61,481 nucleotides of DNA, taken from the NCBI GenBank assembly GCA_963932905.1, contig CAWVRN010000030.1, forward strand, positions 1 through 61,481, read 5' to 3'. The position numbers were made by a program, and so were the translations under genes. Origin of the DNA: an uncultured Bdellovibrio sp. (GTDB lineage: Bacteria > Bdellovibrionota > Bdellovibrionia > Bdellovibrionales > Bdellovibrionaceae). This document shows positions 13,501 to 61,431 of the stretch, one piece after another (within the stretch, counting starts at the first letter, position 1; every line of letters starts with the position of its first letter). The notes beneath the pieces are model-generated. The model worked only from the letters and a program-made list of their open reading frames with translations. It was not told the origin of the DNA and searched no databases.

Positions 13501-13800
13501 CGAAACTTCATTTGGTTCTAGTTTTTTAGATGTTTTATTCAATTTTGATTGAGCTTGACTCGCTTTATAGAATTCTAAACACTTATTGCCATTTACTAAG
13601 CTACTTTCAACTCGACTAACTGATGGTTCTATTGAAACTCTTGCTTGGGGCTGGGGCGCTAGAGTTGATGTTGCTGTTGGTCTTGTTGTGCCAAATAGAT
13701 TCCTAAAAAAGCCTAAGACGTTGGCTTCGGACTGCGATGGTGAAAACATGGTACTACTTATTAAAATACCTAATACTAATTCTAAAAATCTTGATTTCAT
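10543..13800 (-). CDS. DGR target: exported 1085-aa protein with ankyrin repeats and C-terminal FGE-sulfatase-type C-lectin domain
   Basis: Signal peptide; GFSTLHRAI ankyrin repeat; RMPTEAEWEY, DIHGNVWEW, RVIRGG...VGFRLV; VR at 3' end. Confidence 0.93.
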   Translation of the reverse strand: MKSRFLELVLGILISSTMFSPSQSEANVLGFFRNLFGTTRPTATSTLAPQPQARVSIEPSVSRVESSLVNGNKCLEFYKASQAQSKLNKTSKKLEPNEVSDLKSFGQAMTEGMLLQPGQADLFDVYRKLYFGDPNTSVNNETLKSVTDIQKKHPELQKPHFREYEISQVEKVYEMPASLAKYLKSQIQTAGEVRNNLLQIEANLGFWRKVLDYQDAEMPDAIKQMQSKLGKDSLASDKEAYRNAKSAFDSAAKKRFESYLNRLISKANRDLLTDLKNDKEDYQKKVKALYSSLKYIQEWMDKKGRNTQTIRQAMVDLIHTVGFGNQATQVLLKSKNALDRIEGLKKVLDERDAVAMDIGFAGHFQELQASLRIDFPTGLSKNENPNQNIQRLEQEVLVGRYTTKPTETIRVRSLSIQEAPFRSCLGGSDCSTRTYFSKALDPNYNYFTMTDSNFNSSGHITVVLGEAQNPTTGQIEKVAFIDKLQNVPNQQIPSFLQAVSMSLADRGYKLGVPEDVGDHNGMSNMDTTRHFVANEIVPKLSQKLTTFAPHPNQYDFKNTYSRAYNKLTVKIYEPTAVDADTEIRPGREYKNFVANKDLDKNKLIQDLLNLKNSQDPSDVLKYVSSGQVVSQLEKLGLFSVKEFEKDLGKILERQDLPFNIRKAAAFEALLIKAEQNQNELSLDFKNFDETERTQVSSEIRQWSKSSDKRRKKFADSLTDKWSDAVSKSDIKTLEAFVALKLFDINTRDEGGFSTLHRAIHMDQKTVVEWLVVNPKLDLNYKDDLGFTDVDHARLLGKNEIADFIEKIRLESKSRKFEVKERNAQIKTALYPNGTPIVDFVKVPGGKFRMGDAEKVSVTITKPFEMMSTQTTQKMWKDIVNLASVHLKGKYSSLTADPSNFKGDMNPVEQVSHTDIGSWNMAVNELSKLNDPQVQKAMAEIFPGHKKDDDYRMPTEAEWEYVARMRGLSTGDYAHGNTDKNLGDYAWYSGNAGSKTHPVGLKKPIMINGKPIYDIHGNVWEWLADWYGSNLPGGIDPQGPATGSRRVIRGGGWGSSAQFLRSGSRNNGSPGIRYYNVGFRLVRASP
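10556..10680 (-). repeat. DGR variable repeat (VR)
   Basis: Adenine-specific mutated copy of TR; 11 codons altered. Confidence 0.97.
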
Positions 13801-16800
13801 TGCTTTAACCCTCGGTAAAATAATTCACATCGATTGGCTTTAACTGAACTCATTTTTAATGTTCGATCACGAATGTCATGATTACGTTTTACTTGGCTTG
13901 AAATTTTGTCTTCTTTTTGAAATCGTGTTTTCATAATTTCAAGTTCTGTTCCTGATAGCATTTGTCCTTTATAGTACTTTGTGAGAGTCTCAAATTCTTC
14001 CCCAGTTAAACTTTGCTTTTTCACAAGTTGAGCCGTTAAAAATCTGACAAGCCCTTGGTTGTCATTCAAAAAAATCTTGGCCTTCTCTTGAGCTTCCGTA
14101 ATTTCCTGCATGACGATTTGTTCAAAAAGCTCTTTCTTTTTCTCGCTGCCGACAAGATTTCCATCTTTATCAAGATTTGTTCCCCAGAGTTCAGATTTCA
14201 AACCAGCTTCGACGTAATATTTTCCGATTAGCTTCTTCATTTTCTCAAAATCAGAACCCCATCCAGTATCAGATGTAAACCCTGCAACCTCTTGAGAAAC
14301 TCGGCCCGCAACAATCCGAACAAGAGACTCTTTTAGTTCAACCACACCAGAACTTTGTTTATTAACTGAGTCATAAGCTGCATAGCCTAAATATTTTTGA
14401 CCGTCGCCCGCAGAGCCTGACTTAATTGTAACAAAACGAAGCTTTTGACCTGAAACTTCAGGCCTGTTTAAAATTGCATGTCCAATTTCGTGAAATGACA
14501 CCTTAATAAGTTCTTTGGGATTTGGTCTTGTCACATCTTCTTGTTTTTCAAGAAGATCATTCGTAAGCCGTGCTAAAACAACCCCAGCATTGGCTTTGTC
14601 GTGAACAAGAACCTCGACATAAAACTCTTCTTTTAAATTTTTGATAGCGTAATGCTTCTTGGCTCTTAGATCGGTTAACTTTATTTCAACTGATCTTGAA
14701 GACGCATTATCTTCTGTTGTGCCGCTTTCTAAAATAGCTGACGTAATAAGTCCTTGAATTTCACTTTCAAACTTATTTCTTAAAGACCGTCCGCCTTGAT
14801 CGTGGTTAAAGAAAACTTCAGTCGTCGTTTTTAAAACCTGATCTGGCAATAAAACTTCGAGGCCTGGGAATTGTTTTTTCAAATTCTTAAATCCGCCCTC
14901 TAGAGTTTTTCTTGCAATTTGCATCTTTGATTTATCTAAAAGGGGCTTTGTGTGAACAACGAGTTGAGCGCGGCCCAAGATAGCCTCTGGAAATCCACGA
15001 CGGCGAAGTTCACTTCTTACATTGGCTTCAGATTTGACTTTGTTGTAAATCGCTTCACGCATATCATCACCTGATACGCCAAAATAAAGATCTTGCAAAT
15101 CGTTTCCAGTCATCCAAATGACGATTTTAGATAGATCATATTTGCGACCTGTATTTGGTGAAACCCAAAAGCCTTCTTCCATAATATTGTAAAACTTGTA
15201 AAGAATCTGTTCTCGCTCTTGTGGGTTCTTGCCACCAGCATTTGAGATTTCATCTAAAATAAGAATACCGCCGTCTTTGATTTGAAGAAGTGCCTTTTCA
15301 AAAAGACCCATTTGATCTGATTTCACATACTGCGGATTAGCTCCGAAAATCTTAGTCAAATCTTCCTGACGAGAAATATCACCCATTGCGATAATCTGTG
15401 CCTTAGAGCTTGAGCCATAAAGCTCTTTTGCAAGCACCTTCGGAGTTTCAGTTTTTCCGGTTCCAGTTGAACCAACGGCTACAACCGTCATTGGCTTTCC
15501 GGTCGGGATGACTTTCCAATTTCTGATAGCGTTGATGGATTTAGTAACCATCTCTTCTTGTCCGAAAATTTCTTGGTTCACTCTTGATTCAAGCGTTTTT
15601 AAATCCTTCATATCTTCAGCGGAAAGGCTTTGGCCGTTACCTTTGAAGCTGTGATTCTGAAGCTCTACAGTCTTAGTCGGTGTCTGAACCGAAAAGGCCC
15701 AGTTTCTTTTGGCTCCGTTTTTAACAAGACCTACTTTGATTTCCTTTTCAGACGCAACTTGAGTGATTTCTCCAAAAAATCGCTCAACCGCGCGCGATAA
15801 GTCTCTCACTCCATCTTCTTTATTGTAGGTTTGCTCAGTAATATATTTAATGGCTTCATCAGATATCGAAATATTGATTCCATTTCGCTCTTTAAATGTT
15901 TTTTCACGTTTTGAAATTTCAAGTTTTGCTACTTTTATTGTCGTTTCTAAACTCAGCGGGTTTGCGACAAGGTATGTCCCGATTCGATTAACGATCTCAC
16001 GGGGCAGTTTGTAATTGCTGTCGGCTTCCGTTGGCTGCGTAAATAAATCTTTTAAGTCTTTTTGTGAAAATGAATCCACTCGTCTTTTGACTTCCTCATC
16101 GGACCAATTCGCATAGCCCTCTGGGAAAATTTGGTTTACACCGTGATTTGTAGTAGCCACGATTAAAAGGTTTGGAACTTTTACTCTTTTGCCATTTCCT
16201 TGAGTCACTTCGCCATTATCAAATAGATTCATCGCCAGTTCTTTAAGAGTTTCAGGGTGCATTTTTTCGATTTCATCAATCAATAAAACGCCACCGTATC
16301 GGCCTTTACCTGGGTTTTTCATAAATTCAATAAGGCTTCCAACTGTGTCCTTAAACCCATGTGTGCCCGGCCTTGGCCCGAGTAAACCCGTTAACGATGT
16401 GCTTCTGTCAGAAAAAGCAGCACCATCAATTTTGAAAAATCTGTGCTTCCCGCCGAATAAAACTTCAGCCATACTTTCAGCTAAATAGGTTTTCCCAACG
16501 CCCGTTGGGCCCATGAGCGCGACAACTTGTGGTTTGTCTCCAGATGACAGTAAAAGATTTCTGTAAAGGGACAATGTTGTATCAACCATTTTATCTTGTC
16601 CCAGGATTGAAGATTTTAATTCATCTTTCCGTGCTTCGACAAATTGATTGATCTCACTTAAATTCTGCGGATCTGCTGGAATCTTAGTTCTTCGCTTAAC
16701 AAAAGAGAAAAAATCTGATGCTGAAACACTCTTTTGATTTCTTTCGTGAGCTTCAATAGCTAAATCAACCATGACCTTGATCGGTCCATCAGGGCGAGCC

Positions 16801-17627
16801 ACATCGGGCAAAACTTTTTTGTAGTGCTTGACGATCTTCTCAACAATCTCGTCGTCTAGCTTTACGTCGTATCTTTTTTCAACAACTTCGCGCCAAGAAA
16901 GCTTGATGATTTCAATCGTTCGACTTTCAGTGAATTCAGCTACGCCAATCGGCGCAAAGCGCCTCATCATGGCTTCGTCAGAACCAAAGGCAAGCTGAAA
17001 TTCGCGCTCTGTCGTTGCACCAATCAAACGAATTCCATTTTCGTTGGCTGCATCCATCGAGGTTTTAAGAACATTCCACATATCGCTATCAACACTATGG
17101 ATTTCATCTATAAAAAGGATGACGGGCTTTTTTAGCTGCGCTTCAAGCTGTTTGACTGTTTCAACCAAAACTAAAGCCGCATCTTCGGGTTTCTTTCCAA
17201 GTCCCTTAATGCTGGCAGCCTCAAGTTGTATGATCTCAGCCGTTGCAATCTCTTGGCTAAAAACTTTTCCTGTTGGGATTTGGCCCTGAGCTATCATCTG
17301 TGCTATTTTTTCAACGACCGCCGTTTTTCCAACTCCGGCTTCCCCTAAAAGAACAGGGTTTTTACCTTTAATTCGGATCAGAGTATTTATGGCTTGCTGC
17401 GCCTCTTCAGTTCGATCAGCAATTGGTTGAAATTGTCCAGCCGCCAATTTCTTTCGAACATCATCAGTAAGTAGGCGTGGATTAAGGGAAAGAATTAACT
17501 TCCCAGGTTGTGATTGAGTAAGGGTCTCTCGAAGTTGAGCTTGCGCGAAGCTGCCAACGCTTAAAATCAAAATGGTGACCAACGCGTTAATCAGGTGTCT
17601 AAAGTTTTGACAAAGACTCATATCCAT
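13797..17627 (-). CDS. Exported Clp-like protein with three AAA+ modules and a C-terminal M41 (FtsH-like) metallopeptidase
   Basis: Signal peptide ending SFAQA; Walker A GEAGVGKT, GPTGVGKT, GSTGTGKT; Walker B FIDE, LIDE, ILDE; HEIGH, AGRVSQE, GWGSD; start uncertain (17621-17669). Confidence 0.85.
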   Translation of the reverse strand: MDMSLCQNFRHLINALVTILILSVGSFAQAQLRETLTQSQPGKLILSLNPRLLTDDVRKKLAAGQFQPIADRTEEAQQAINTLIRIKGKNPVLLGEAGVGKTAVVEKIAQMIAQGQIPTGKVFSQEIATAEIIQLEAASIKGLGKKPEDAALVLVETVKQLEAQLKKPVILFIDEIHSVDSDMWNVLKTSMDAANENGIRLIGATTEREFQLAFGSDEAMMRRFAPIGVAEFTESRTIEIIKLSWREVVEKRYDVKLDDEIVEKIVKHYKKVLPDVARPDGPIKVMVDLAIEAHERNQKSVSASDFFSFVKRRTKIPADPQNLSEINQFVEARKDELKSSILGQDKMVDTTLSLYRNLLLSSGDKPQVVALMGPTGVGKTYLAESMAEVLFGGKHRFFKIDGAAFSDRSTSLTGLLGPRPGTHGFKDTVGSLIEFMKNPGKGRYGGVLLIDEIEKMHPETLKELAMNLFDNGEVTQGNGKRVKVPNLLIVATTNHGVNQIFPEGYANWSDEEVKRRVDSFSQKDLKDLFTQPTEADSNYKLPREIVNRIGTYLVANPLSLETTIKVAKLEISKREKTFKERNGINISISDEAIKYITEQTYNKEDGVRDLSRAVERFFGEITQVASEKEIKVGLVKNGAKRNWAFSVQTPTKTVELQNHSFKGNGQSLSAEDMKDLKTLESRVNQEIFGQEEMVTKSINAIRNWKVIPTGKPMTVVAVGSTGTGKTETPKVLAKELYGSSSKAQIIAMGDISRQEDLTKIFGANPQYVKSDQMGLFEKALLQIKDGGILILDEISNAGGKNPQEREQILYKFYNIMEEGFWVSPNTGRKYDLSKIVIWMTGNDLQDLYFGVSGDDMREAIYNKVKSEANVRSELRRRGFPEAILGRAQLVVHTKPLLDKSKMQIARKTLEGGFKNLKKQFPGLEVLLPDQVLKTTTEVFFNHDQGGRSLRNKFESEIQGLITSAILESGTTEDNASSRSVEIKLTDLRAKKHYAIKNLKEEFYVEVLVHDKANAGVVLARLTNDLLEKQEDVTRPNPKELIKVSFHEIGHAILNRPEVSGQKLRFVTIKSGSAGDGQKYLGYAAYDSVNKQSSGVVELKESLVRIVAGRVSQEVAGFTSDTGWGSDFEKMKKLIGKYYVEAGLKSELWGTNLDKDGNLVGSEKKKELFEQIVMQEITEAQEKAKIFLNDNQGLVRFLTAQLVKKQSLTGEEFETLTKYYKGQMLSGTELEIMKTRFQKEDKISSQVKRNHDIRDRTLKMSSVKANRCELFYRGLKQ

Positions 17628-17742
17628 TCCCTTCTGTAGAGCCCTCTGAGTGATTGTTTTATCAAGCACGACGACTCATATATGAGGAATACAAGTATTA
17701 TGCCGTTTGACGATATTTAATTTGCCAATCGTTTCATTATGT

Positions 17743-17800: not shown

Positions 17801-18643
17801 TTATCGACTTTGCCAACGATATACGGCTTTTTGAAATTGCCACACCTTTGCTCTGATGTAGTCGGGGATTCCGTAGTCATATTGCGAGTCTCTAATTTCT
17901 ACTATAGGTATATTTCTTTGTAAGGCTACTGCGCGTATGTCCTGAAGAACTTCATCAGAAATTATCTTCTTACCTAATATTGATCCTTTATATGGGTCAA
18001 TAGCAGCGTTGCCTTTCGAATTCACTTTAATAAAAATTGCTGCAATTTCAACCTGTCCAAATGAGGTTGATCCAAGAACTGCTATTTCATTACACAGTAC
18101 ACTCGTAGGCGTTTCTTCCAATATTTTCTCTGGCGATGCAATTCCAAACATTTGACTCCATTTTGATATTACTTCCGAAATCTTTGAATTTTTTAAAAAA
18201 CCAAAATTTCCTAAGTTTGGAATTCCCATATCCCGAGGAGACGTAGCCACTATGTTCTGATGTGGCGCTTTTAAAATGAATCCATACCATCCAAAAGTTG
18301 CGCGATGATCTTGATCAATAAGACTGGTACTCAAGAGACGCTCTTTTAGCACATCCGGATTTTTCAATACGCTTTGTGCTGTTGGCTTTCCATCAAATAC
18401 ACCGTGAACGACGTACCTAAATTGACTATCTCTATGAATTGCCGGATCAGTAAAGTTTCCTGACGACCACCGTTCCTGATTTACATCGAATTGTGGATCA
18501 ATCCATTCTTTTGGATTAATTTTAGTGTCTCGATTTGATACCGGCGTAGTTTCGATTGACAGCCGATAAAACTGTGAACACTCACTTGTCGCGTAGGCGA
18601 AGTAATGGCAACTAAATAACAAGCAAAATAGAATTAATCTCAT
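17801..18643 (-). CDS. Exported hypothetical protein, possibly ADP-ribosyltransferase-like fold
   Basis: Signal peptide ending AYA; YVVHG, LSTSLI and NEIAV motifs. Confidence 0.6.
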   Translation of the reverse strand: MRLILFCLLFSCHYFAYATSECSQFYRLSIETTPVSNRDTKINPKEWIDPQFDVNQERWSSGNFTDPAIHRDSQFRYVVHGVFDGKPTAQSVLKNPDVLKERLLSTSLIDQDHRATFGWYGFILKAPHQNIVATSPRDMGIPNLGNFGFLKNSKISEVISKWSQMFGIASPEKILEETPTSVLCNEIAVLGSTSFGQVEIAAIFIKVNSKGNAAIDPYKGSILGKKIISDEVLQDIRAVALQRNIPIVEIRDSQYDYGIPDYIRAKVWQFQKAVYRWQSR

Positions 18644-18716
18644 GCAAAAATAAAGATGCAATACAAGCACCTACGACGACCGGACTGATGACATATGCAG
18701 GTAAACTGATTCCTAC

Positions 18717-22032: not shown

Positions 22033-22083
22033 TTAGGCGGCGAGGGTAGTTAAAACGGGTCTCGCTGCTTTCATGGCTCGGCC

Positions 22084-23064: not shown

Positions 23065-23065
23065 A

Positions 23066-23191
23066 GTATTCCTTAATATGGTATAGTTATAAAATTAGTC
23101 TATACCATATTAAGGAATACTCAAGAAAATGTGCTAAAAAGAGAAAAATTCTTAATATGGGATGAGGCTTAAATCGAGCTATACCATATTA
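23066..23191. promoter_or_regulatory. Perfect 21-bp inverted repeat plus a degenerate second copy upstream of fic
   Basis: GTATTCCTTAATATGGTATAG (23066-23086) / CTATACCATATTAAGGAATAC (23100-23120); second pair at 23151-23191. Confidence 0.75.
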
Positions 23192-23226
23192 GTGGAATAT
23201 AAATAAAACAGGCATTATCACAAAAG

Positions 23227-23260
23227 TGTCACCACAAAATCTAGTGACAAAATGGTGACA
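23227..23260. repeat. Putative integrase arm-type sites
   Basis: TGTCACCA (inverted copy, 23227) and TAGTGACAAAATGGTGACA (23242-23260). Confidence 0.65.
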
Positions 23261-23380
23261 ACACCAAGGGAATCGGCAGAATTTGAGGGAACTCAGCGGC
23301 TATTAAAAAAAGCAGCTAACGTCTTGTGATTATTGAAAAAGTTCTTTATTTTTACTACCTTACCAAAGCGCCAAGGAAGA

Positions 23381-32857: not shown

Positions 32858-33078
32858 ATCCCAGTTTTACCGTCATCTAGTCGCTTAGGCAACGTTATAA
32901 GCCTTTAAGGCTGGGCCCTGTAAGTTGTCGAAATATTGGTCGTCGTTTACCTTTTTTGGAAATTGGTAGGATATTATTGCGGGAGTGAATGCGACGGTGG
33001 AACTATTGGGGGTAAGACGCAGATAAAGCGGAGATTTTAGGGTTTGACCCTGCACTTATTTTGCAATGTCCACCATGT

Positions 33079-35106
33079 ATGATGAAACGCATGTTATATA
33101 TCGCAGTGGCAGTGCTGGTCGGTTTTCAAGTGTCCTCGTTCGCCAAGGAGGGGAGTGAGGTCGAAAAAAAGACCGTTGAGCTTTTAAAATTAGCCCGCGA
33201 GTCCGAAGAGTTCACGATGTATGGTGTAGATCAGTTGAACCTAAAAATAGCGATGGCATCCGTAGCGGAAAAGCAAACCGTTGATATCGATCATATCAAG
33301 CAGTTGTACTCTTCAATACAAGGCAAAGTAACCGTAGTTAAAAAAGAATTTGCGTCATTTAACGATTTTGTTGAAGAGGAAAGACAAACTTGGCCAGCTT
33401 CTGGTGATTTATCTATCGATATCCAGCGGATACTAGAGAAGGGTATTACGTTAATTGACCCGAGTTTTACTAACGAAGAAGATAAAGCGAGATGGGCCAA
33501 AAATGAATCGGCTCAACAAAAGTTCATGAACAAAATGGGCTTAGCGGGAATGGGAACATTCATGCAGATTTCGGCTCAATCGGCAGAACAGCAAGAAAAA
33601 TTTAAAAATGATGTGTTGAAAATGACAGACGGTTTTAGCAGCCTTGATAATAGTTTGCAAAATTCGTTTAAAGATATGTTTGCGGGCGAAGGCGATGGTT
33701 TTTTAAAAATCGCATTTCCCATCTTGATGGCTGAATATCTAGAAAATGTGAATCACAGAACAAAATTAAATATATTAGCTGGTATGTTTGAAGGATCATT
33801 TCCATTTACCCAGGATGGATTAGTGATGTCTTTGTTTTCAAACGCGGGTCCTCAGCTGCAGAAAATGGTACAAACCTTAGGGCGCAACTCGGCCCTAGCG
33901 CCTAAATGGCAAGCCTTGTTTCAAACGTTTGAATCGAACGTGCGTCCAGTTCCTTTCTGGCAAGTGGAGCAATTGTTAGCGCGTGCCAAATTTCCATTTA
34001 AAATTATTGATTTTCATCAAGAGCCTCTTGGTGTTGGTACTATCGCGCAAGTGCATTTAGCTAAGGTGCAATTACCTAGCGGTGAAATCACCGATTATGT
34101 ATTTCGGTTTATTAAGCCGGAAATGAAGCAAAAAGCTGAAGACGAGGCATCCGTGATCGAAAAAGCCTGCATCGCGATCGATCATCATCCAGATGTGGTT
34201 GGAAAAAATTATCCAAAACTAACCAGTATTGCAGATAACTCGTATACGATGATCAAACAGGATCTGGTTTTGAAAGAATCGGTTATCAATCAAAAGATAG
34301 GGCGAAAGGTATACAAACGATCGGATATCGATGTCCCTGTGGTAGACCTTTCATTGGATACAGAGCAGTTGTTTATGTACTCCACGAAAGCTTCGGGACA
34401 GAAAATTTCTAAATATTCTGTCCCGGTGCAACGTACATTAGTTAATCGCGTGGTGGAGGTATGGTTAGAAGAAGCGATGTTTGGTTCTGGGTATTTTCAT
34501 GCGGATTTACATCAGGGTAATTCGATGGCTTTGTTGCGTGATGATCAAAAAGGAAATGATCGCTACCTTAAATCGTTCTTGGATTTTGGTATGTTCGGAC
34601 AATTGACCAAAAGTGACCGCGTGAATCTGATGGGTTTAGGTATCGCGGTGAAAATGGGTAATGGCAAAATGCTGAGCCAAATCGCATGGCGGCTATCTAG
34701 TATCAAAGAGAACACAATTACTATGCCTGATCTAGCTGCTAAGTTGGATAAAAAATTTAAATCGCTAAATGGACAAGGATTAACAGTCGCAGATATGATT
34801 AAGTTTTTCCAAGAGGTAGGACTTGAATTAAATGACAACGTTTTAAATTATCTTCGTGGTTCAATTACGCTAGGCGATCAGTTGATTCAGGTTGACCCCA
34901 AAAATTCACTTTTGGGTATGTCTGTGAAGGTCGCGCTTAAACATCCAATTCAATTAATGAAGGTTTTAAAATTTAAGGAAATTTCGATGAAGGATATTAT
35001 GAAGCTTGGGTGGAAGCAGTATGTTTCTCCTAAATTGAATAAATCGGCGTCGATTGTGTCTGGAGCTGACATGTGTGTTGGTTTCTATCTAAAGCAAAAA
35101 CGCTAA
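33079..35106 (+). CDS. Exported ABC1/AarF/UbiB-family atypical kinase
   Basis: Signal peptide ending SFA; GPQLQKMVQ, PLGVGTIAQVH, FHADLHQGN, LDFG. Confidence 0.85.
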   Translation: MMKRMLYIAVAVLVGFQVSSFAKEGSEVEKKTVELLKLARESEEFTMYGVDQLNLKIAMASVAEKQTVDIDHIKQLYSSIQGKVTVVKKEFASFNDFVEEERQTWPASGDLSIDIQRILEKGITLIDPSFTNEEDKARWAKNESAQQKFMNKMGLAGMGTFMQISAQSAEQQEKFKNDVLKMTDGFSSLDNSLQNSFKDMFAGEGDGFLKIAFPILMAEYLENVNHRTKLNILAGMFEGSFPFTQDGLVMSLFSNAGPQLQKMVQTLGRNSALAPKWQALFQTFESNVRPVPFWQVEQLLARAKFPFKIIDFHQEPLGVGTIAQVHLAKVQLPSGEITDYVFRFIKPEMKQKAEDEASVIEKACIAIDHHPDVVGKNYPKLTSIADNSYTMIKQDLVLKESVINQKIGRKVYKRSDIDVPVVDLSLDTEQLFMYSTKASGQKISKYSVPVQRTLVNRVVEVWLEEAMFGSGYFHADLHQGNSMALLRDDQKGNDRYLKSFLDFGMFGQLTKSDRVNLMGLGIAVKMGNGKMLSQIAWRLSSIKENTITMPDLAAKLDKKFKSLNGQGLTVADMIKFFQEVGLELNDNVLNYLRGSITLGDQLIQVDPKNSLLGMSVKVALKHPIQLMKVLKFKEISMKDIMKLGWKQYVSPKLNKSASIVSGADMCVGFYLKQKR

Positions 35107-42739: not shown

Positions 42740-42745
42740 AGGACT

Positions 42746-46143: not shown

Positions 46144-46163
46144 TATAGAATAGAAAGGCTTGT

Positions 46164-46919
46164 ATGCAGTTGGGATTAGACGGAAAAAAAGCGCTAGTTT
46201 TTGGTTCATCGGGTGGAATTGGAAAAGCAATTGCAGAGAGTTTGCTAAAGGAAAAAACACACGTAGTTGTGAATTCGCGAAGCGCCGATAAAATCAAAGC
46301 TACTGTTTCTGAATTTAAAAGTAGTTTCTCAAATGCCAACGTGTACGGCGTGGCTGCGGACTTGACAAAAAAAGACGAAGCAACACGGGCGGTGAAAGAA
46401 GCCAAAGAACTTTTGAACGGCTTAGACGTGTTGGTTGTAAATACCGGGGGCCCAGCCAAAGGTTCTTTTGAAGATATTTCTACAGAACAATGGTTGTTCG
46501 ATTATCAAAATTTATGGATTAGTTTTGTCGATGCTGTAAAAGCCAGTCTTCCTGAAATGAAAAAGAATAAATTTGGCCGTATTCTGTTAATCACGTCTCT
46601 AGCCGCCAAAGAACCATTGAAAGGCTTAACAACATCAAATGGCCTTCGTGCTGGTCTGAGTGGTTTGTGTAAATCGTTAGCGAATGAGGTAGCTATCTAC
46701 GGTATAACGGTTAATGTTTTACTTCCTGGATATACAGATACGGATCGATTAAAGGAACTGAAACTATCTGAAGAAACAGTGAAAGGACTTGTGCCTATGG
46801 GACGGTTAGGACAACCTCAAGAATTGGCGGATTTAGTTTCTTTTTTGGCGTCTGAACGAGCTGGTTATATTACTGGACAGTGTATTGCCGTCGACGGTGG
46901 AGCTTTGCGTAGTTTTTAA
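46164..46919 (+). CDS. SDR-family oxidoreductase
   Basis: GSSGGIG, NTGGP, SNGLR. Confidence 0.9.
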   Translation: MQLGLDGKKALVFGSSGGIGKAIAESLLKEKTHVVVNSRSADKIKATVSEFKSSFSNANVYGVAADLTKKDEATRAVKEAKELLNGLDVLVVNTGGPAKGSFEDISTEQWLFDYQNLWISFVDAVKASLPEMKKNKFGRILLITSLAAKEPLKGLTTSNGLRAGLSGLCKSLANEVAIYGITVNVLLPGYTDTDRLKELKLSEETVKGLVPMGRLGQPQELADLVSFLASERAGYITGQCIAVDGGALRSF

Positions 46920-48139
46920 TTGATATCAACAATCCAAACGCGGCGAACCAAGCGATCGAACTCTTGAGGGGAAATCCATACGTAACCATTATAACCCCAA
47001 GGCTTGCGATACGTATTTTTAACTTTTATAGCAACAGTAACTCCAGATGGAGTGATTTCCATATCCGTGACTGCTAAAGAGTGGCCAAAATTTTCAACGG
47101 TACCATTTATGTCGATGTTAACCATTTTACCGTTGGTTAACCCATCTTTGATGTGCTTAAGAACTTCATTCAGGGGTTGAGGACGAAATACAGGATGTGG
47201 AGATTGTGGCACTAGTTTGAGTAATACATTGGATAGTAAATTTACTTTTTGTTTATCGGGATAAGGGAGTTCTCCATGCATGTATCTTACTTCAATAGGA
47301 GTCGTAGAGCTTTGGCCATACATTTTGCCAAATGATTCTGGGGTATGCTCGACACCATCGTAAATGAATGGTTTCGGCATGATACCCACATAGCTACTGA
47401 GAGCTTTGTCGAAAATATCTTTTTTAATATCATTTAAATTTTTTGGGGCGTAGTAATTGGGATTTAGAATTAAATTGTTTCGCACGATATCTGTTTCGGT
47501 TTTGATGGTTTCGTAAATAGAATTGAAATCCCAACCGTTTTTGCCATCAGACCCATCGGCTAAAATTAAAGGTCGCCAAATATCCTCTGGCACTAAACCA
47601 TGTTGCTGGACCAGTTCGATGGCGTGAGGTAACTCTCCACCCTCTAAATTGAAATGAAATGGCTGAGCATAGCGAGAAATCAAATTGGCGATTACGTGTT
47701 CAAATTTTTTCGCTATAAGGTATTCCGCTCGAAAGCGAAGAGGCCGAGGAGCGGTGCTGCGATTCGCGTAGGCATTTTCAAGGCTGGTTAGATAGGAATA
47801 AAGAAAACATTCTTTTGAAGTGCTTTGATCTAATGTTCTTATTTCTAAGTTGCCGAATGTGTAATTGCCCTTGTTTGGAGAATATGGGTAGAGCATTTGC
47901 CAGAAGGTTGTTTTTGGAACTTGGCCTTCAGTTCCTTCGTTGACCAAAAGCATATCCTTTGGAACTTTCTTTGGGCGATATCGCCAGTTATGAATACGGT
48001 TTCCCCACATCGGTGACAATTGCGACATTTTGTTTGGTGGTGGATCTTTATAAAAATGAGAGCATTGATCATTATTGGCCAATGATGAAATAGAAAAAAA
48101 CAGAGGAAATAGTAATACAAGTGTCTTAAAACTAGTCAT
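46916..48139 (-). CDS. Exported papain-like C1 cysteine peptidase
   Basis: Signal peptide; DQSTSKECFLYS (Q, C), GHSLAV (H), KVKNTY...WGYNGY (N). Confidence 0.75.
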   Translation of the reverse strand: MTSFKTLVLLFPLFFSISSLANNDQCSHFYKDPPPNKMSQLSPMWGNRIHNWRYRPKKVPKDMLLVNEGTEGQVPKTTFWQMLYPYSPNKGNYTFGNLEIRTLDQSTSKECFLYSYLTSLENAYANRSTAPRPLRFRAEYLIAKKFEHVIANLISRYAQPFHFNLEGGELPHAIELVQQHGLVPEDIWRPLILADGSDGKNGWDFNSIYETIKTETDIVRNNLILNPNYYAPKNLNDIKKDIFDKALSSYVGIMPKPFIYDGVEHTPESFGKMYGQSSTTPIEVRYMHGELPYPDKQKVNLLSNVLLKLVPQSPHPVFRPQPLNEVLKHIKDGLTNGKMVNIDINGTVENFGHSLAVTDMEITPSGVTVAIKVKNTYRKPWGYNGYVWISPQEFDRLVRRVWIVDIN

Positions 48140-48312
48140 TACTCTCCTTAATAAAAGATATACGGGGCTGCTGAACCACACCTAATATCTAGTACAGGAA
48201 TCAGACCAAAATGGGGCGTTTCTGGACGTATTAAAATCATTTAATTTCAAATTAATTGAGTATTTAGATTCGTTTGCTAACCTAAGACTCACAATTGCGA
48301 AAAGGAGTTTTT

Positions 48313-53664: not shown

Positions 53665-53665
53665 T

Positions 53666-54334
53666 ATGAGTAACAGCAATCAGATCAAGGTGAAAAGGTT
53701 AGTACGTGCTTTTCAAACCGCAGTGGTGTTGGTTTGCGCACTGGTTGTGTTTGGTAACGGATGTGCTGAGGGTGGTTTCTATCCTCAAGGATCTGAAGAA
53801 ATAGCTTCTACTTTGAATTCCTCTTGTAAGGATCCAAATGAAATTGAAGTTATTCCAGGTGCTAAAACGGCTAGCTTAGTTGGAACGACTAATATTGTTC
53901 AGCACTTTGCTGCCTGCGCTGGTTTAGAAACGGTATCGCAATTAACTCAAGGTGTTTACGAGGACAAGAAAAGTTCAATTGGTACCTATGGTGCTGTAAC
54001 ATCAATCACGGCTCCCTATTTAATGGCGGTGCATAGTATCGCCGGTGAAGTTTGCAACGATATTATTGATCAAGAAATTGCTAAAGGAACTCGAATTTTT
54101 GCAGGTTGGAATTTGGCAGCCAATGCGTTGCCTTCCGATTCTCAGATTGCAAATGCAGCGATCAATATGTCTTTGTCTTGCTGGCAGGACTATGAAATTT
54201 CAGAAGAAGAAACAAGCATCGTTATTAGTTCCATCGTTTCATCGATTGGTTCAAACGAGGCGGGGGCATCTAGAAAAGCGGCAATTATGATGTGTACATC
54301 AATGCTAGCTAGCTTGAACGCGCTTCTGAATTAG
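53666..54334 (+). CDS. Cys-rich lipoprotein
   Basis: VFGNGC lipobox-like motif. Confidence 0.7.
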   Translation: MSNSNQIKVKRLVRAFQTAVVLVCALVVFGNGCAEGGFYPQGSEEIASTLNSSCKDPNEIEVIPGAKTASLVGTTNIVQHFAACAGLETVSQLTQGVYEDKKSSIGTYGAVTSITAPYLMAVHSIAGEVCNDIIDQEIAKGTRIFAGWNLAANALPSDSQIANAAINMSLSCWQDYEISEEETSIVISSIVSSIGSNEAGASRKAAIMMCTSMLASLNALLN

Positions 54335-54391
54335 TAAGTTAAGGTGTGGGGATTTTTTAAAATTTATTTAATAAAAAATTGGGGATGATAG

Positions 54392-55852
54392 ATGGAAAAT
54401 AACAATAGTAACAAACCGAAACTGTATCACGGTCGACGACCGGTAACTCGACGGGAATTTTTAGCATCGGGAGCGATTCCAATGATGTCTTACATGATTC
54501 CGTCCGCTTTGATGACGACATTTGCGAAAGCAGGTATCGCTCAAGCACAAGAGCTTTGTAAAGTTGGTGAAGCCTCTAAGTTTCCGCCCATTGTAAACAT
54601 CAACGCCAATGGCGGTTGGTGGGTTGCTGGAAATAACATTTTTTTAACGGAAGGTCGTGAATTGCTGCCTTCCTACGGTAGAAACGGTCTTGGTTCGGCT
54701 GCGAACCTGGTAAGTCAGATTGTTAAGACAGGTCACTTTAAAAATCAACCTCCGTTTTACAGCGGCTCGGGTTTCTTAGCCGGTGTTCAAACAAGTTTAG
54801 TAAATGGTGCAGCGTCTGCGGCATTAGCAAAAACTAACTTCGTAAGTATGCCTCTGCAAAGTCAAAACGACTCGGACACAAATAAATTGGCACCTTTTTA
54901 CTTGCTTCAAAAAGCAGGTTTAAGCGGTAAGATTTTACCTAACTTGGGTCGTACGGATAATGGTATCGGCGTAAGTAATGCTTCAGCTTTTGGTATGTCA
55001 CCGGCACCGTTGATTGTAAATAATGTCGATAACATCGTAAATGCTTTGGGTGTAGGGGATCGTTTAGCACAGCTAAACCAAGTGCAAAAAACTAATTTAT
55101 TTAAAGCTTCGCAAAATCTGTCTTTTGCACAAAGCCGAAAACTAGCTAGCTTAACGGGCGGATCGTTACTTGATCGTTTGTTAGGTCAGGCGAATGCCGA
55201 CAACTCGAAGTTGATTGAAAACCCTGCGGGTTTGGATCTTGATCCAAGAATGAATGCGCAGTTCGCAGCTGTTTGGGGTTTGAATAACAACACTCCAAAA
55301 AACGCAGAAGACTATATCAACGCGTCGCTGATTTACAATGCGATCAATGGAAATTGTGGTGCTGTAGGTATCGAAGTGGGAGGCTGTGACTATCACGGTA
55401 GTACACTGGCTCAAACTATTGCTAAGGATAACGAGATCGGAACTTTGACTGGTAAGATCTTGCAATCTTTCGCAGCGATGGGATCTCCTGGTTTCATTAT
55501 GATTAATACTGATGGTAGCGTGGGAGCACCTCCGTCAGATATTCCAGGAACAGATCCTACGGCAGATCGTGGTGATTCGTCTGGTATTTACATGATGTAC
55601 TACGATCCTACGGATTCTGTCCAAGCTCCAGATTCGCAAGTGGGTCATATGAAAAATGATCCGGATGCAGAAGCAGCGGATGATAAATTCTTGGTTGGCG
55701 GTAACGCGGAAATTGCTACGGCAGCTGTGTTTGCTAACTTTTTATCCGCCGCTGGTAAGATGAACTTATGGACAGCTATACCTGAAACGAATCGAACATT
55801 CGATAGTATGCAGCTAGCAAAAATCCTGAAGTTTCATGGAAAGGCCGGGTAG
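54392..55852 (+). CDS. Tat-exported DUF1501-like protein
   Basis: TRREFL twin-arginine motif; GGCDYH. Confidence 0.7.
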   Translation: MENNNSNKPKLYHGRRPVTRREFLASGAIPMMSYMIPSALMTTFAKAGIAQAQELCKVGEASKFPPIVNINANGGWWVAGNNIFLTEGRELLPSYGRNGLGSAANLVSQIVKTGHFKNQPPFYSGSGFLAGVQTSLVNGAASAALAKTNFVSMPLQSQNDSDTNKLAPFYLLQKAGLSGKILPNLGRTDNGIGVSNASAFGMSPAPLIVNNVDNIVNALGVGDRLAQLNQVQKTNLFKASQNLSFAQSRKLASLTGGSLLDRLLGQANADNSKLIENPAGLDLDPRMNAQFAAVWGLNNNTPKNAEDYINASLIYNAINGNCGAVGIEVGGCDYHGSTLAQTIAKDNEIGTLTGKILQSFAAMGSPGFIMINTDGSVGAPPSDIPGTDPTADRGDSSGIYMMYYDPTDSVQAPDSQVGHMKNDPDAEAADDKFLVGGNAEIATAAVFANFLSAAGKMNLWTAIPETNRTFDSMQLAKILKFHGKAG

Positions 55853-55895
55853 GCCTGACCAGATAGCCGGAAAGGCCGGCGGGTAGACCTGACCA
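55838..55895 (+). repeat. Imperfect tandem duplication spanning a stop codon
   Basis: GGAAAGGCCGGGTAGGCCTGACCA / GGAAAGGCCGGCGGGTAGACCTGACCA. Confidence 0.7.
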
Positions 55896-55989
55896 ATTGA
55901 AATTGAACAGGTTTGGGTAGGTGGGGAAACTTACCTAAACTTTAAGACTACGAGCTGATTAAGTGTGTTGACGTACGATGGGGGACTTA

Positions 55990-57750
55990 ATGAAATTTAA
56001 AACAATAAAAAGACTTGCCCTTGTGATGGTAGCGGGAAGTTTTTTAACTGTTGCATTTAACAACTGCGGCAAGCCGAAATCTGAAGAAACGGCTGCGTCG
56101 GAGTCCTATGCTAAATTGAGCGATGAGCCATGTGAAGATCAATTGATGAACTTCTACGCTCGTTCCTATCAGGCGTTCTTGGTCACTAACTGCTCGTCAT
56201 GTCACTCGGTCGGTCCAGGTAAAGGACAGTTTGCAAACAAAGATACCATCACATCGTACAAAGATTTTATGCAGATTGGTTACTCCAAAGTATCGGCTAA
56301 TGCGATCAGTGATGGTCATAACTACCCATACTCGGGTTCACAACATACTCAGACAATTAACGATTTGAAAATTTCTTGGATCAAAGCTTTGTCTGAGAAT
56401 GACTTGTGCTTGGGCGGTAATGGTGAAGTACAGCAGGTTCAAACAATCAAAGAACGGGCTACATTTGCTTTAATACCAAAATTGATTCCAGCAATGAATG
56501 ACAATGAAGAAAAACGCGTTGAATTTGTTTTCAAAACAGATCTTTCGCAAATCAAAGAAACACCAGTGCCTGAACTTTACGGTGCTAAGATTTCTTTCAT
56601 GATTAGAAAGGTATTAAAAGGCACTGATAGAACGTATTCAGTTCACTCGCCTCGCATTTATGGAAACACTCAAGATATTCGTGTGAAAGGCATTTTCACG
56701 AAAATCAATGGACGCTATATTCAGTACTCTACAAATTTCATTTTTGCAGATTCGAAAATTCCAAAGGGTTCAACCGAAGGATCTTTGAATTCACTGGTGT
56801 CAACAGGTGCATTAACTATCGCGGGCGCTATGTTCCCTGACGATTCCATTAGTTTTGATTTTGAGTTGTTAGAAAAAACAGTGATTCCGCCACCACCGCC
56901 CCCAGTGTATTTATCGTTCACGGGAACAAAAACGGTCTTAGCTCCAGCGGGTGGCAGCGTTGATCCGGTGGCGCCGCCGAACGAGGTCACGTTCACTGTT
57001 GGTCTAGATAAAGCGTCAACAGAAGTAGTAACCTTCACTTACACAATCGATTCAACGCCTATCTGTAACAACGGAACTGTGAATGCGACGTGCTTGCCAG
57101 ATGTTTACGCCTTGCTATGTCCAGGAGGAAATTGCCCACATGCAAACTCGGCAAAAGTTGGCTTGGCTCGGTCTGTAGTTGGAGCAAGCTTTAATAGATT
57201 CGATTGGGATTACAAATTAAATGCGAATTCTTTTAGCTTTGAGCCAGGTGAAACAACTAAATCATTCACTATTAGAACTTCTAAAGATATTCGTTATGAA
57301 GAAAATAAAGTTCTCACAATCAGACTAGAGGCTGGAATTGGCAGTATTCAGGTTGTTGCTGCTAACTCATTAGCACGAATCGCGTATAATAAAATTATGA
57401 ATCCAGTTCCTCCGAATGGTCAGATGACGTACACGAAATTGATGAGTGGCGGTACTTTAGATAAAACGTGCACCGAGTGCCACAATTCGACAAAGCGTGA
57501 CGGTGGTTACGATATTCGTGATTATGAATTGATGATTTCAAGTAACAAGCAAATCCTGGTTCCAGGCCAAGACAAGATCGTTTACGATGCAGATTTTAAC
57601 AAAATCGTAACGGCAGTTAGCTTGATGTATCGTCGTACTTTGCCGCAATTTACACCCGAGTCGTTATTGATGCCGCGTTTGAAAACATTGACGCCAGCGG
57701 AATACAATGACGTAGAGAACTGGTTGTCTAACGGCGCGAAAAACAACTAG
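55990..57750 (+). CDS. Dihaem c-type cytochrome lipoprotein
   Basis: AFNNC lipobox-like motif; CSSCH and CTECH; C-terminal MP...WL..GA. Confidence 0.8.
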   Translation: MKFKTIKRLALVMVAGSFLTVAFNNCGKPKSEETAASESYAKLSDEPCEDQLMNFYARSYQAFLVTNCSSCHSVGPGKGQFANKDTITSYKDFMQIGYSKVSANAISDGHNYPYSGSQHTQTINDLKISWIKALSENDLCLGGNGEVQQVQTIKERATFALIPKLIPAMNDNEEKRVEFVFKTDLSQIKETPVPELYGAKISFMIRKVLKGTDRTYSVHSPRIYGNTQDIRVKGIFTKINGRYIQYSTNFIFADSKIPKGSTEGSLNSLVSTGALTIAGAMFPDDSISFDFELLEKTVIPPPPPPVYLSFTGTKTVLAPAGGSVDPVAPPNEVTFTVGLDKASTEVVTFTYTIDSTPICNNGTVNATCLPDVYALLCPGGNCPHANSAKVGLARSVVGASFNRFDWDYKLNANSFSFEPGETTKSFTIRTSKDIRYEENKVLTIRLEAGIGSIQVVAANSLARIAYNKIMNPVPPNGQMTYTKLMSGGTLDKTCTECHNSTKRDGGYDIRDYELMISSNKQILVPGQDKIVYDADFNKIVTAVSLMYRRTLPQFTPESLLMPRLKTLTPAEYNDVENWLSNGAKNN

Positions 57751-57784: not shown

Positions 57785-58507
57785 ATGGATTTAGGTAAGA
57801 TTTTTACACGAAAAAGAAAGTTTCTAGCGGTGATGATGGCATCGTGCCTGCTGTTAGTTGTTTCTTTCCAAAACTGTTCAGTAGTTGGTTCCGCTAACAG
57901 TTCTAAATCTAGTAAATCATCTTCTGAGAATGATATCTTGGGCGCGCAGGCCTTGGAAATTCTAAGTTCGAAATGTTTAACATGTCATAATCCTGATAAA
58001 CCAGAGGGTGGTATTTCAGACATCACAGATTTAAATTTCTTACTGTATTATCGCCTAGTCATTCCTGGTCAGCCTGAAATTTCAGATTTGATCCGTGTTA
58101 TCAAAGAGGGCAGTATGCCTCCTGGAGGCGGCGTTTCCACAGACGATTTAGCGGCGCTAAATAAATGGATTCTAGAAGGTTTGATCGATGACAGTGGTAA
58201 CGTAGCCATACCGGATGGTTCGGCAACGTTAGAAGCAAAGTATAGTAGTATTAAAACTCGTATCATCAATACGAAATGTTTGGGTTGTCACAGTGGAGCG
58301 ACCCCTTCGGGTGGCGTTGATTTAACTACTTACGCAAATACTGTTGCGAATAATATTGCGATTGCAGGAAATCCAAATGGATCGCGACTTGTAACCTCTA
58401 TGCAACGTGCCGGCAATGACTTTATGCCTCGAAACGGAGCTCGTATTCCTCAAGCTGATATTGATATCGTAAAGGCTTGGATTCAAGCCGGTGCTTTAAA
58501 TAACTAG
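57785..58507 (+). CDS. Dihaem cytochrome c lipoprotein (planctomycete-type domains)
   Basis: SFQNC; CLTCH...MPP and CLGCH...MPR; WIxxG. Confidence 0.85.
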   Translation: MDLGKIFTRKRKFLAVMMASCLLLVVSFQNCSVVGSANSSKSSKSSSENDILGAQALEILSSKCLTCHNPDKPEGGISDITDLNFLLYYRLVIPGQPEISDLIRVIKEGSMPPGGGVSTDDLAALNKWILEGLIDDSGNVAIPDGSATLEAKYSSIKTRIINTKCLGCHSGATPSGGVDLTTYANTVANNIAIAGNPNGSRLVTSMQRAGNDFMPRNGARIPQADIDIVKAWIQAGALNN

Positions 58508-60333: not shown

Positions 60334-60456
60334 TCAGTGCCCTTTTAGGGTTTGCCGTATAAACCGTATTCAGTGTGTTAGAATACAATCAAGTTATAGA
60401 TAAGTTTTGATTTTGCAGGCTTTCTTTTTAAATGATTTTACAGCCTGGAGCTCACG

Positions 60457-61431
60457 TTGAAACTGTTGGCTAGAGTTCTTTTTTTAATCTTCCTTTCGGC
60501 CGCCTGTGTGGCACGACCCATATTCTTTATTGGCGATATTCACGCTGACATGGATGCGCTAAAACGAATTCTAGTGGGGTTAAAATTAGTGGATCAAAAT
60601 CTAAACTGGATTGGCGGCGATGCTGAACTGGTTACATTAGGTGATCATTTGGATCGTGGCCCAAGTTCTCGACCTGTATTGGATCTATTGATGCGTCTGG
60701 AGTCAGAATCGAAAACATCAGGAGGCAAAGTTACTAATTTAATTGGTAATCATGAATTCATGACGGCTGATGGTCACTATGGATACGCCCAAGGCGGAGA
60801 CACACTCGGTTATCGCGATTTTAAACTCGGTGTGCGAGGCAATGGTTACGAAAAGGCATTTGTCGGCCAAACCATTTATGCTCAATGGTTTCGGGCCCGT
60901 CCTGCGATGTATATCGTTGATGATACATTGTTTGTTCATGCCGGTGTGACCGAAAAAATGTTAAACTATTCTATCGATGAAATTAATAACCTAGTCACTG
61001 ATTGGATGCGTTTCGCACAGGGCGTGGGTGAGCAACCACACCCATCTACGATTTGGGTTGTTCAAAATGATGGTCCACTGTGGACAACGAGACTCAGTTA
61101 CCGCGAAGATACCTTTAAGCGCGACAAAGTAAACACTCACTTGTTGCCAGTAGAAATTCTGGATCGATTGTTGGCGCATTTTAAAGTTAAGCGGGTAGTT
61201 GTAGGTCATCAGCCTGTAGAAGATATGGAAAAAGCAGTCCATCATCCTGTGTATGGGAGTAGAGTCGTTTCAGTCGATACGGGAATTTCTGTTTCAGATA
61301 ATAAAATAGTTTCTGGGTTTAAATTAGAAAATGGAATAGTAACTGGATTTCATTTTGATAGACGATCACAAACGTTGCTTAATACCGTGCATTCGCAGCC
61401 GATGAAAAACTTGTGCTTAAGTTTTTATTAA
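60457..61431 (+). CDS. Exported calcineurin-like metallophosphoesterase
   Basis: GDIHAD, GDHLDRG, GNHE, HAG, VGH, VDTG. Confidence 0.9.
   Translation: MKLLARVLFLIFLSAACVARPIFFIGDIHADMDALKRILVGLKLVDQNLNWIGGDAELVTLGDHLDRGPSSRPVLDLLMRLESESKTSGGKVTNLIGNHEFMTADGHYGYAQGGDTLGYRDFKLGVRGNGYEKAFVGQTIYAQWFRARPAMYIVDDTLFVHAGVTEKMLNYSIDEINNLVTDWMRFAQGVGEQPHPSTIWVVQNDGPLWTTRLSYREDTFKRDKVNTHLLPVEILDRLLAHFKVKRVVVGHQPVEDMEKAVHHPVYGSRVVSVDTGISVSDNKIVSGFKLENGIVTGFHFDRRSQTLLNTVHSQPMKNLCLSFY

Follow-up and report, generated by a model that had tools for sequence, protein, structure and literature searches.

A terminal C-x-x-F-Y motif on exported proteins of an uncultured Bdellovibrio: a candidate sorting or tethering tag

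Why should a set of exported proteins with different domains begin or end with the same five-residue motif? The question is raised by a 61,481-nucleotide stretch of DNA from an uncultured Bdellovibrio sp. (the whole stretch is hereafter called the window), which is contig C30 of genome G000 (4.55 Mb, 58 contigs, 40.7% G+C) and in which six proteins carry C-x-x-F-Y, that is, a cysteine followed by two variable residues, phenylalanine and tyrosine. The original prediction, made on these six copies, took the motif for a sorting or tethering tag of signal-peptide proteins. Here, we report that C-x-x-F-Y is strongly over-represented at protein termini throughout the genome, and we examine the carriers, the conservation of the motif and its counterparts in related genomes. 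We give about an even chance to the reading that [N]-x-C-x-x-F-Y is a portable, lineage-specific sorting or tethering tag on Sec-exported proteins, acting via a single free thiol.

Enrichment of C-x-x-F-Y at protein termini

Genes were called crudely, by taking the longest open reading frames (ORFs) of at least 70 residues and removing overlaps greedily, which gave 4285 ORFs with 1.39 million residues; expected motif counts were derived from residue composition. The genome contained 82 copies of C..FY versus 22.2 expected. In the C-terminal zone (at most 10 residues between motif and stop), 30 copies were observed versus 0.75 expected (Poisson P 3.8e-37), and in the N-terminal zone (motif start before residue 80) 39 versus 5.42 (Poisson P 1.1e-20), whereas internal copies, 13 versus 15.8 expected, showed no enrichment. 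The ORFs of the window (18,600 residues) held 6 copies versus 0.30 expected. Control motifs with the letters reordered or respaced did not accumulate in the C-terminal zone (C..YF 2, FY..C 3, YF..C 0, C...FY 1), and with the cysteine replaced, 9 of 200 S..FY and 6 of 218 G..FY copies fell into it. The 69 proteins with a terminal copy (hereafter the carriers; 39 N-terminal and 30 C-terminal tags) were also enriched for export-type N-termini: 55 of them passed a signal-peptide rule based on crude hydrophobicity and not on a trained predictor, compared with 1301 of the remaining 4216 ORFs (odds ratio 8.8, P 1.5e-16). The terminal enrichment among signal-peptide proteins that had been proposed was thus strongly borne out, and the terminal excess is real and far beyond chance.

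As the motif is short and was first picked by eye, its recurrence might be ascribed to chance or compositional bias, to a repeated DNA element or to protein ends that share a common descent. This explanation is refuted by the zone statistics, the flat scrambled controls and the free variation of synonymous sites, and its probability is negligible. Residues flanking the tags are unrelated among carriers. Moreover, the tag codons match genome usage (TGT in 39, TTT in 41 and TAT in 46 of the 69 tags) and the bases flanking them carry no information, which places selection on the protein and not on the DNA. Four or five of the carriers (Lgt, NDK, DUF6691, DUF4423 and one Cys-rich protein) are apparently chance hits, in agreement with the roughly 6 expected by chance; omitting the first four leaves a set of 65 carriers that is used where stated.

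The tags extend into a fuller consensus, with asparagine at -2 in 28 of 69 cases versus a background of 4.9% and leucine or arginine at +1. C-terminal tags are followed by a basic tail of 0-9 residues (median 2) in which 30 of 85 residues are lysine or arginine and 1 of 85 is acidic. The residues preceding the cysteine of N-terminal tags are polar, and by eye A-x-A type sites are placed 2-10 residues upstream. A weight matrix recovered only a handful of degenerate variants in G000 (CHRYY, CIEVY, CRKLY and CSEFV).

The six sites in the window

All six originally predicted sites stand: each is in frame by translation, in ORFs of 289 to 1290 residues. The tags and their carriers are as follows.

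13567..13581, minus strand: tag CLEFY, residues 74-78 of the variable protein of a diversity-generating retroelement (DGR)
10543..13800, minus strand: DGR variable protein, 1085 residues, signal-peptide-like; Pfam PF03781 at 838-1082, E 2.4e-33
13815..13829, minus strand: tag CELFY, 5 residues upstream of the AAA+/M41 stop
13797..17669, minus strand: AAA+/M41 fusion, 1290 residues, signal-peptide-like start; Pfam AAA_2, AAA, ClpB_D2-small and Peptidase_M41
18566..18580, minus strand: tag CSQFY, residue 31, immediately after the signal peptide (..FAYATSE/C)
17801..18670, minus strand: orphan exported protein, 289 residues, first gene of a three-gene tagged row
35074..35088, plus strand: tag CVGFY, followed by 5 residues (LKQKR) and the stop
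33061..35106, plus strand: ABC1/UbiB-type atypical kinase, 681 residues, signal-peptide-like start; Pfam PF03109 at 291-535, E 5.7e-18
48050..48064, minus strand: tag CSHFY, residue 40 of the longest ORF, immediately after the signal peptide (..SSLANNDQ/C)
46916..48181, minus strand: putative papain-like (C1) exported protein, 421 residues; ESM-Atlas look-alikes
61414..61428, plus strand: tag CLSFY, final five residues of the phosphoesterase
60457..61431, plus strand: calcineurin-like metallophosphoesterase, exported, 324 residues; Pfam PF00149, E 5.1e-13

Three of these tags (CSQFY, CSHFY and CLEFY) lie near a signal-peptide-like N-terminus and three (CELFY, CVGFY and CLSFY) are C-terminal. 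The motif had been said always to sit near a mature terminus; the DGR-target tag is less terminal than the other five, as it starts at residue 74, separated from the signal peptide by a linker of about 45-48 residues. Pfam families could be assigned to four of the six carriers. The DGR variable protein ends in an FGE-sulfatase/CLec-type variable domain, and the AAA+/M41 protein joins two ClpB-type AAA+ modules to an FtsH-type M41 peptidase domain and has a tagged paralogue at G000:C35:1562-5200. The 289-residue protein at 17801..18670 gave no Pfam match at E<=0.01 and no NCBIfam match. The protein at 46916..48181, earlier labelled a C1 peptidase, has no Pfam match even at E<=0.01; going by its resemblance to Peptidase_C1 (papain-family) clusters in the ESM Atlas (score 0.93, TM 0.57-0.65), it is probably papain-like.

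The carriers and their families

Of the 69 carriers, 55 pass the crude signal-peptide rule and 14 fail it. By eye, a basic plus hydrophobic leader is present in 28 of the 30 C-terminal carriers; among the 39 N-terminal ones, 32 have a hydrophobic core (mean hydropathy >=2.3) within about 25 residues upstream of the cysteine. Clustering by blastp gave only 3 paralogue pairs, so that the carriers are, as had been stated, unrelated. Pfam domains were found in 31 of the 69 and belong to more than 25 families, and the remaining 38 have no Pfam family at E<=1e-5, 34 of these having none at E<=0.01 either.

Many carriers contain ATP-, NAD- or acetyl-CoA-using domains, in line with the earlier claim that several need cytoplasmic cofactors. 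Toxin-like or normally cytoplasmic types recognized by Pfam or NCBIfam comprise two ABC1 kinases, two AAA+/M41 fusions, an ADP-ribosyltransferase exoenzyme domain, a weak PARP match, a RelA/SpoT domain, two GNATs, a phosphoenolpyruvate (PEP)-utilising ATP-binding domain, a DnaG/Toprim-like protein and a peptide-deformylase-like protein. Lipid and phosphate enzymes are represented by OlsF-like, two PLD/cardiolipin-synthase-like, GDPD, APP1, diglucosyl-diacylglycerol-synthase-like, glycerol-3-phosphate (G3P)-oxidase-like, PhoD, sulfatase and metallophosphoesterase proteins, and peptidases by S8, two S9, S41 and C92 members. In five relatives nothing matches the tagged S41 protease at E<=1e-30, and the tagged G3P-oxidase-like protein is only 30-33% identical to their GlpD (and 27% identical to an untagged, leaderless housekeeping paralogue), so that the carriers are lineage-specific extras.

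Conservation of the tag and depletion of other cysteines

All 15 sequences in an alignment of the phosphoesterase family, at identities down to 32%, keep the terminal cysteine, and the linker upstream contains insertions and deletions. Each of the 12 closest homologues (>=40% identity) has C-x-x-hydrophobic/N-[YW] at its end, in the form C..FY in 8 cases, and tails within the genus read CQRFY, CQRFY, CLSFY and CHRFYGR. In the same line, the C1-like protein and its orthologues at 51% and 34% identity carry CSHFY, CVGFY and CIVFY, with C, F and Y invariant in all three amid unconserved surroundings, and N-x-C-K-S-F-Y-Y is kept in three of three ADP-ribosyltransferase-like orthologues (47-48% identity). 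Where tagged paralogues share 25-42% identity, both retain the tag, and at the same end. For the phosphoesterase, an AlphaFold model has high confidence overall (mean predicted local distance difference test, pLDDT, 84.9) and values below 50 at the tag residues 317-324, which supports the predicted position of the tag outside the folded domain.

A different conserved cysteine tail, ..GPVAxLxxTQCAxxAAAN, is found in the distant phosphoesterase homologues P0058, P0070, P0087, P0088, P0094, P0109, P0115 and P0118; P0109 is labelled Caulobacteraceae, and some further homologues in the same list are labelled Hyphomonadaceae. Judging from these tails, lineage-specific C-terminal cysteine tails may be more widespread in this exported family.

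The tag cysteine is often the only one. Carriers contain 0.40 cysteines per 100 residues, tag included, versus 1.04 in other signal-peptide-like proteins and 1.02 in leaderless soluble ones, and their other cysteines lie mostly in the leader or in pairs 1-7 residues apart. Among the 65 carriers, the mature protein holds besides the tag no cysteine in 35 cases, one pair at most 7 residues apart in 12, one other cysteine in 12 and more in 6. This depletion fits the disulfide attachment to a carrier that the original prediction had considered. G000 further encodes a VKOR-DsbA fusion (G000:C10:3155-4339), with a VKOR-like domain (CPFC, five membrane helices) and a DsbA-like domain (CPHC), as well as additional DsbA-like CxxC proteins, so the periplasm should be oxidising; in such a compartment, a lone thiol on 65 exported proteins is unlikely to be accidental.

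Tag flavour among relatives

Relatives of G000 were sampled in part, with the same crude gene caller, and relationships were taken from record labels.

G009, same genus, 166 kb: 3 C-terminal C..FY (0.03 expected), 1 after a leader
G005, same genus, 107 kb: 5 C-terminal C..[FYVILH]Y (0.12 expected), namely CHRYY, CSLFY, CLKVY, CRKFY and CRKLY
G005, same sample: CLGVY and CRKYY after leaders
G007, same genus, 379 kb: 1 exact C-terminal tag
G017, same family, other genus, complete genome, 400 kb: no tags; 8 C-terminal-Cys tails without a common motif

The suggestion of a lineage-wide tag therefore survives in part: exact F-Y is dense in G000 and G009 and gives way to a looser form in G005, but it is rare in G007 and absent from the sample of G017. 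G000 and G009 have F-Y as the final pair, G005 has hydrophobic-Y. As read from these sequences, N- and C-terminal tags have one flavour per genome, which differs between genomes, and a flavour shared by both ends within a genome is what would be expected of a co-evolving protein reader. In G022, which belongs to another genus, three leader-bearing proteins with a single cysteine end in CSHVL.., CESVL.. and CKSIL.., and two DGR-target paralogues start with CREVL and CNEVL; this suggests, as a weak and post hoc lead, a [VI]-L flavour in that genome.

Two simpler surveys were uninformative. The share of proteins with one cysteine in the last 11 residues was 5.7-8.4% in all six genomes and does not detect the tag. 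A DNA-pattern survey of 40 relatives, in which AAYNNNTGYNNNNNNTTYTAY was compared with its reverse, was discarded as too noisy (68 versus 42 in G000, 35 versus 40 in the tag-dense G009).

Lipidation, docking and the search for a partner

A single conserved cysteine followed by aromatic and basic residues (the C-terminal tails described above) would suit a membrane interface, and the tag cysteine might accordingly be a site of lipidation or of a small modification (S-acylation or a diacylglyceryl-like group) that serves outer-membrane anchoring or vesicle loading. Several observations would fit this view: many carriers are lipid enzymes (OlsF-like, PLD/cardiolipin-synthase-like, GDPD, APP1 and UbiB-like), the DGR variable protein needs a surface anchor and has an orthologue in G011 with a true lipobox, and one of the two Lgt genes of G000 (G000:C5:26426-27385; the other is at G000:C27:5300-5998) adjoins two carriers. 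However, none of the 39 N-terminal tags fits the lipobox [LVI][ASTVI][GAS]C, and C-terminal tags, 30 of the 69, come without a membrane helix that could present the cysteine. At least two Lgt matches, one form being longer (about 360-390 residues), occur in 38 of 41 genomes of the order, among them G017 with its tag-free 400 kb, and the second Lgt was rejected as a tag-specific enzyme. The change of flavour from genome to genome also favours a co-evolving protein reader over a conserved lipid transferase. Overall, we regard lipidation as unlikely.

A purely non-covalent signal, docking the carriers to an outer-membrane translocon, a chaperone or a type II system and using the cysteine only for shape, would account for the terminal position on a flexible tether, which is like that of known secretion signals. 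G000 encodes four secretins, and one N-tagged gene adjoins GspE/GspD genes. Cysteine depletion with close pairs also recalls autotransporter passengers, of which a passage of PMC3546941 states that, being largely unfolded as they cross the outer membrane, they tolerate only disulfides between closely spaced cysteines. Against this stands the invariant cysteine in otherwise Cys-free exported proteins of a genome with DsbA, which is hard to explain without thiol chemistry. The adjacency to type II genes is a single anecdotal case, no CsgG gene was found in G000, and Pfam searches at E<=1e-5 revealed no beta-barrel translocator, autotransporter or two-partner secretion (TPS) domain in the 69 carriers. 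We consider a signal without thiol chemistry rather improbable.

Neighbourhoods and upstream regions were searched for a partner and for a shared promoter. When the 531 proteins encoded within 4 genes of carriers were clustered, only TetR, LysR and DUF4423 regulators and histidine kinases recurred. Prepilin-like genes near carriers were not significantly enriched (2 of 8 versus about 1 expected). The best upstream 6-mer, TGTCTA, was present in 9 of 65 regions versus 112 of 4195, at P 7.5e-5 before correction for thousands of words, and sigma-28 and sigma-54 patterns were not enriched upstream of carriers.

A further idea is that the tag acts after delivery, by binding a conserved target-cell factor for import hijack or activation (compare the Tol/Ton boxes of colicins), or that it protects the producer by marking stray toxins in its own periplasm for inhibition or degradation. 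Colicins do engage target proteins via short linear boxes on disordered ends, and carriers such as the ADP-ribosyltransferase, the RelA/SpoT-like protein, the GNATs, the PLD proteins and the AAA+ protease would endanger their producer. But ordinary hydrolases and a binding protein are tagged too, no immunity-like neighbour family was found, and the flavour differs among close relatives that presumably meet similar targets; a role of this kind is very unlikely.

The DGR locus and its surroundings

The protein at 10543..13800 is the target of the adjoining DGR, whose cassette is complete.

8046..10257, minus strand: DGR cassette
9679..10257: HRDC protein
9300..9704: bAvd
8303..9322: reverse transcriptase
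8046..8303: Asn-rich short ORF that matches the end of the FGE-sulfatase domain and is template repeat-like

Full-length orthologues of the variable protein occur in four other genomes, each with a cysteine motif just before the conserved region: CAQIF in G005, CRQVF in G022, CQESF in G016 and CVDLF in G011, where it follows a true lipobox (..LSAC). From this comparison, the tag on the DGR protein of G000, placed where the G011 orthologue has a lipobox, suggests an anchor-like use. DGR-target-like proteins with an FGE-sulfatase-type end are expanded in G022 (12 matches), G027 (9) and G034 (7), and several of the G022 genes are consecutive on contig C66.

In G000, three adjoining minus-strand genes are tagged at the N-, C- and N-terminus, respectively, and the last two overlap, the AAA+/M41 gene sharing its final 4 bases with the DGR-target gene. 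The tag of the gene upstream of the DGR target resembles the target's own in four of four genomes in which this could be checked (CELFY/CLEFY in G000, CSEIF/CAQIF in G005, CNEIL/CRQVF in G022 and CDYSL/CQESF in G016). The upstream gene in G005 is the AAA+/M41 orthologue, which ends in ...RCSEIFSGGN, with an I-F pair unlike the usual hydrophobic-Y of that genome.

Such pairs raise the question of whether tags bind each other. In a tag-to-tag disulfide zipper, tags would pair, and modules exported on their own would thereby become covalent A-B complexes. The AAA+/M41 protein, for example, would be linked by its C-terminal tag to the product of the overlapping next gene, the DGR-diversified binding protein, at the N-terminal tag of the latter. 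The likeness of the paired tags in four genomes, the departure of the G005 pair from its genome's flavour, the overlap of 4 bases and the similar numbers of C-terminal (30) and N-terminal (39) tags would all be in keeping with such pairing. Yet both operon tags lie less than 300 nt apart, so that a single recombination tract could swap both, and the basis is four genomes only. The remaining tagged neighbours form N/N or C/C pairs, which in G005 differ at +3 (CLGVY/CRKYY and CLKVY/CRKFY). Random pairing among 65 proteins would, in addition, be of no obvious use. The zipper is, in our estimate, quite improbable.

Adjoining the DGR and the tagged row, the window encodes a phage-type integrase (20926-22032), a Fic/DOC protein (22084-23064) and a SUKH-1 immunity-type protein (24556-25047), within 20926-25047, which suggests a mobile island. 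Elsewhere, a gene cluster for tryptophan/kynurenine breakdown spans 38497-46919 and comprises kynurenine monooxygenase-like, kynureninase, cyclase/formamidase-like, 3-hydroxyanthranilate dioxygenase, amidohydrolase and aldehyde dehydrogenase genes. Five successive plus-strand ORFs of 222-774 residues at 49091-57750 have no Pfam family, four of them with an export-type start, and are followed downstream by a di-heme cytochrome c-like protein (57785-58507).

A candidate thiol-dependent sorting tag

How might the tag work? We infer its thiol chemistry, its partner and the destination of its cargo from the pattern described above. After export and removal of the signal peptide, the tag would be exposed on a flexible tether, 2-10 residues from the mature N-terminus or 0-9 from the C-terminus. 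One common partner, either an envelope receptor or another tag, would read residues +3 and +4 and co-evolve with them. The tag cysteine, as the sole unpaired thiol of an otherwise Cys-free cargo, would then be used for a covalent link, most likely a disulfide in an oxidising periplasm, and by this link the cargo would be sorted or tethered, to be displayed on the surface or delivered onward. Hydrolases, lipid enzymes and toxin-like enzymes would make up the cargo, along with a binding protein diversified by the DGR, and a reducing target compartment could release it later. That the cargo reaches prey is putative, as is the organism's life as a predator, a status taken from taxonomy labels.

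Several observations weigh against a thiol-dependent sorting tag of this kind. Within the genus, G007 is tag-poor, with its one exact C-terminal tag in 379 kb, and the flavour proposed for G022 consists of 3 C-terminal cases versus 0.56 expected, for a pattern chosen after viewing the data. Distant phosphoesterase homologues in Alphaproteobacteria-type metagenome-assembled genomes also end in a cysteine tail, ..TQCAxxAAAN, and in this one family the meaning of the terminal cysteine may therefore be family-specific. In G000 itself, 14 of 69 carriers fail the crude signal-peptide rule, at least one further non-vicinal cysteine is present in 18 of 65, and the DGR-target tag, about 48 residues from its signal peptide, indicates that a free end is not strictly required. 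Finally, the neighbourhoods of carriers yielded regulators and kinases and no partner gene, and no motif is common to the regions upstream of carriers.

A more specific version of the sorting tag, doubtful but worth stating, is delivery in two steps, in which dozens of Sec-exported Cys-free effectors would be coupled by their terminal cysteine to a common carrier (which could be the DGR protein, tag to tag), carried to the surface or target and released there by reduction. If so, the system would amount to a modular AB toxin in which many A parts share a single B, and its docking code at +3/+4 would drift between lineages. How Bdellovibrio-type bacteria allot exported proteins to their own periplasm, to the surface or to the victim is an unsettled question, to which a tag of 5-7 residues would contribute a list of about 65 candidate weapons readable from sequence. 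The tag might also serve as a minimal, end-independent protein tag, and a single cysteine on otherwise Cys-free cargo offers a searchable signature in lineages whose tags end in other residues.

Comparison with known systems

As far as the literature was searched, a terminal C-x-x-F-Y tag is undescribed: among the titles and abstracts covered, we found no such tag and no sorting signal for Bdellovibrio. The closest parallels are MYXO-CTERM, with its myxosortase, and CFI-box-CTERM (NCBIfam NF041770), which occur in Myxococcus and Bdellovibrio-type bacteria, are restricted to C-termini and consist of a motif, a transmembrane helix and a basic end. They share with C-x-x-F-Y a short one-Cys motif near the C-terminus of many unrelated exported proteins in related lineages and a presumed role in surface sorting or anchoring. 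In C-x-x-F-Y, however, 0-9 mostly basic residues follow and no helix, and over half of the copies are N-terminal. With so few residues after F-Y and no hydrophobic run among them, a tripartite C-terminal signal (MYXO-CTERM, PEP-CTERM, GlyGly-CTERM, LPXTG or CFI-box-CTERM) was rejected. Two further candidates were set aside: a CaaX box, as all 30 C-terminal tags have their cysteine at the fifth to fourteenth position from the end and never at the fourth, and heme CxxCH or sulfatase C-x-P-x-R motifs, as F and Y occupy +3 and +4 and the logo shows no proline at +2.

The lipobox read by Lgt and LspA likewise provides a single cysteine directly after the signal peptide as an attachment point, and the G011 orthologue of the DGR protein has a real one. 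Here, in contrast, the cysteine is preceded by polar residues and also occurs at C-termini, and the lipobox was rejected as an account of the tag; about 133 other proteins of G000 are lipobox-like. The type VI effector markers MIX and FIX are found on proteins without a signal peptide that are delivered through a type VI secretion system (T6SS). As with C-x-x-F-Y, a short motif near one end flags unrelated toxins or enzymes as clients of one route, but C-x-x-F-Y carriers are signal-peptide-like in the 55 of 69 cases noted above, and no match to VipB/TssC, the T6SS sheath, was found in G000, which is 98.6% complete.

Colicins are translocated proteins that are poor in cysteine. Autotransporter passengers, by the passage of PMC3546941 cited above, resemble the carriers in having few cysteines and closely spaced pairs; 12 of 65 carriers have only a pair at most 7 residues apart. 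Such paucity of cysteines, together with the close spacing of pairs, is in keeping with proteins that leave an oxidising periplasm by a narrow channel. Unlike the carriers, autotransporter passengers and colicins do without one deliberate terminal cysteine.

Two further parallels are the inter-chain disulfide of AB toxins and the thiol-mediated retention or assembly of IgM and IgA by the cysteine in their C-terminal tailpiece. As would hold for the tag, one terminal unpaired cysteine couples a cargo to a carrier or retention factor, and reduction or exchange releases it; these systems are, however, eukaryotic or single dedicated pairs, whereas C-x-x-F-Y serves some 65 cargos.

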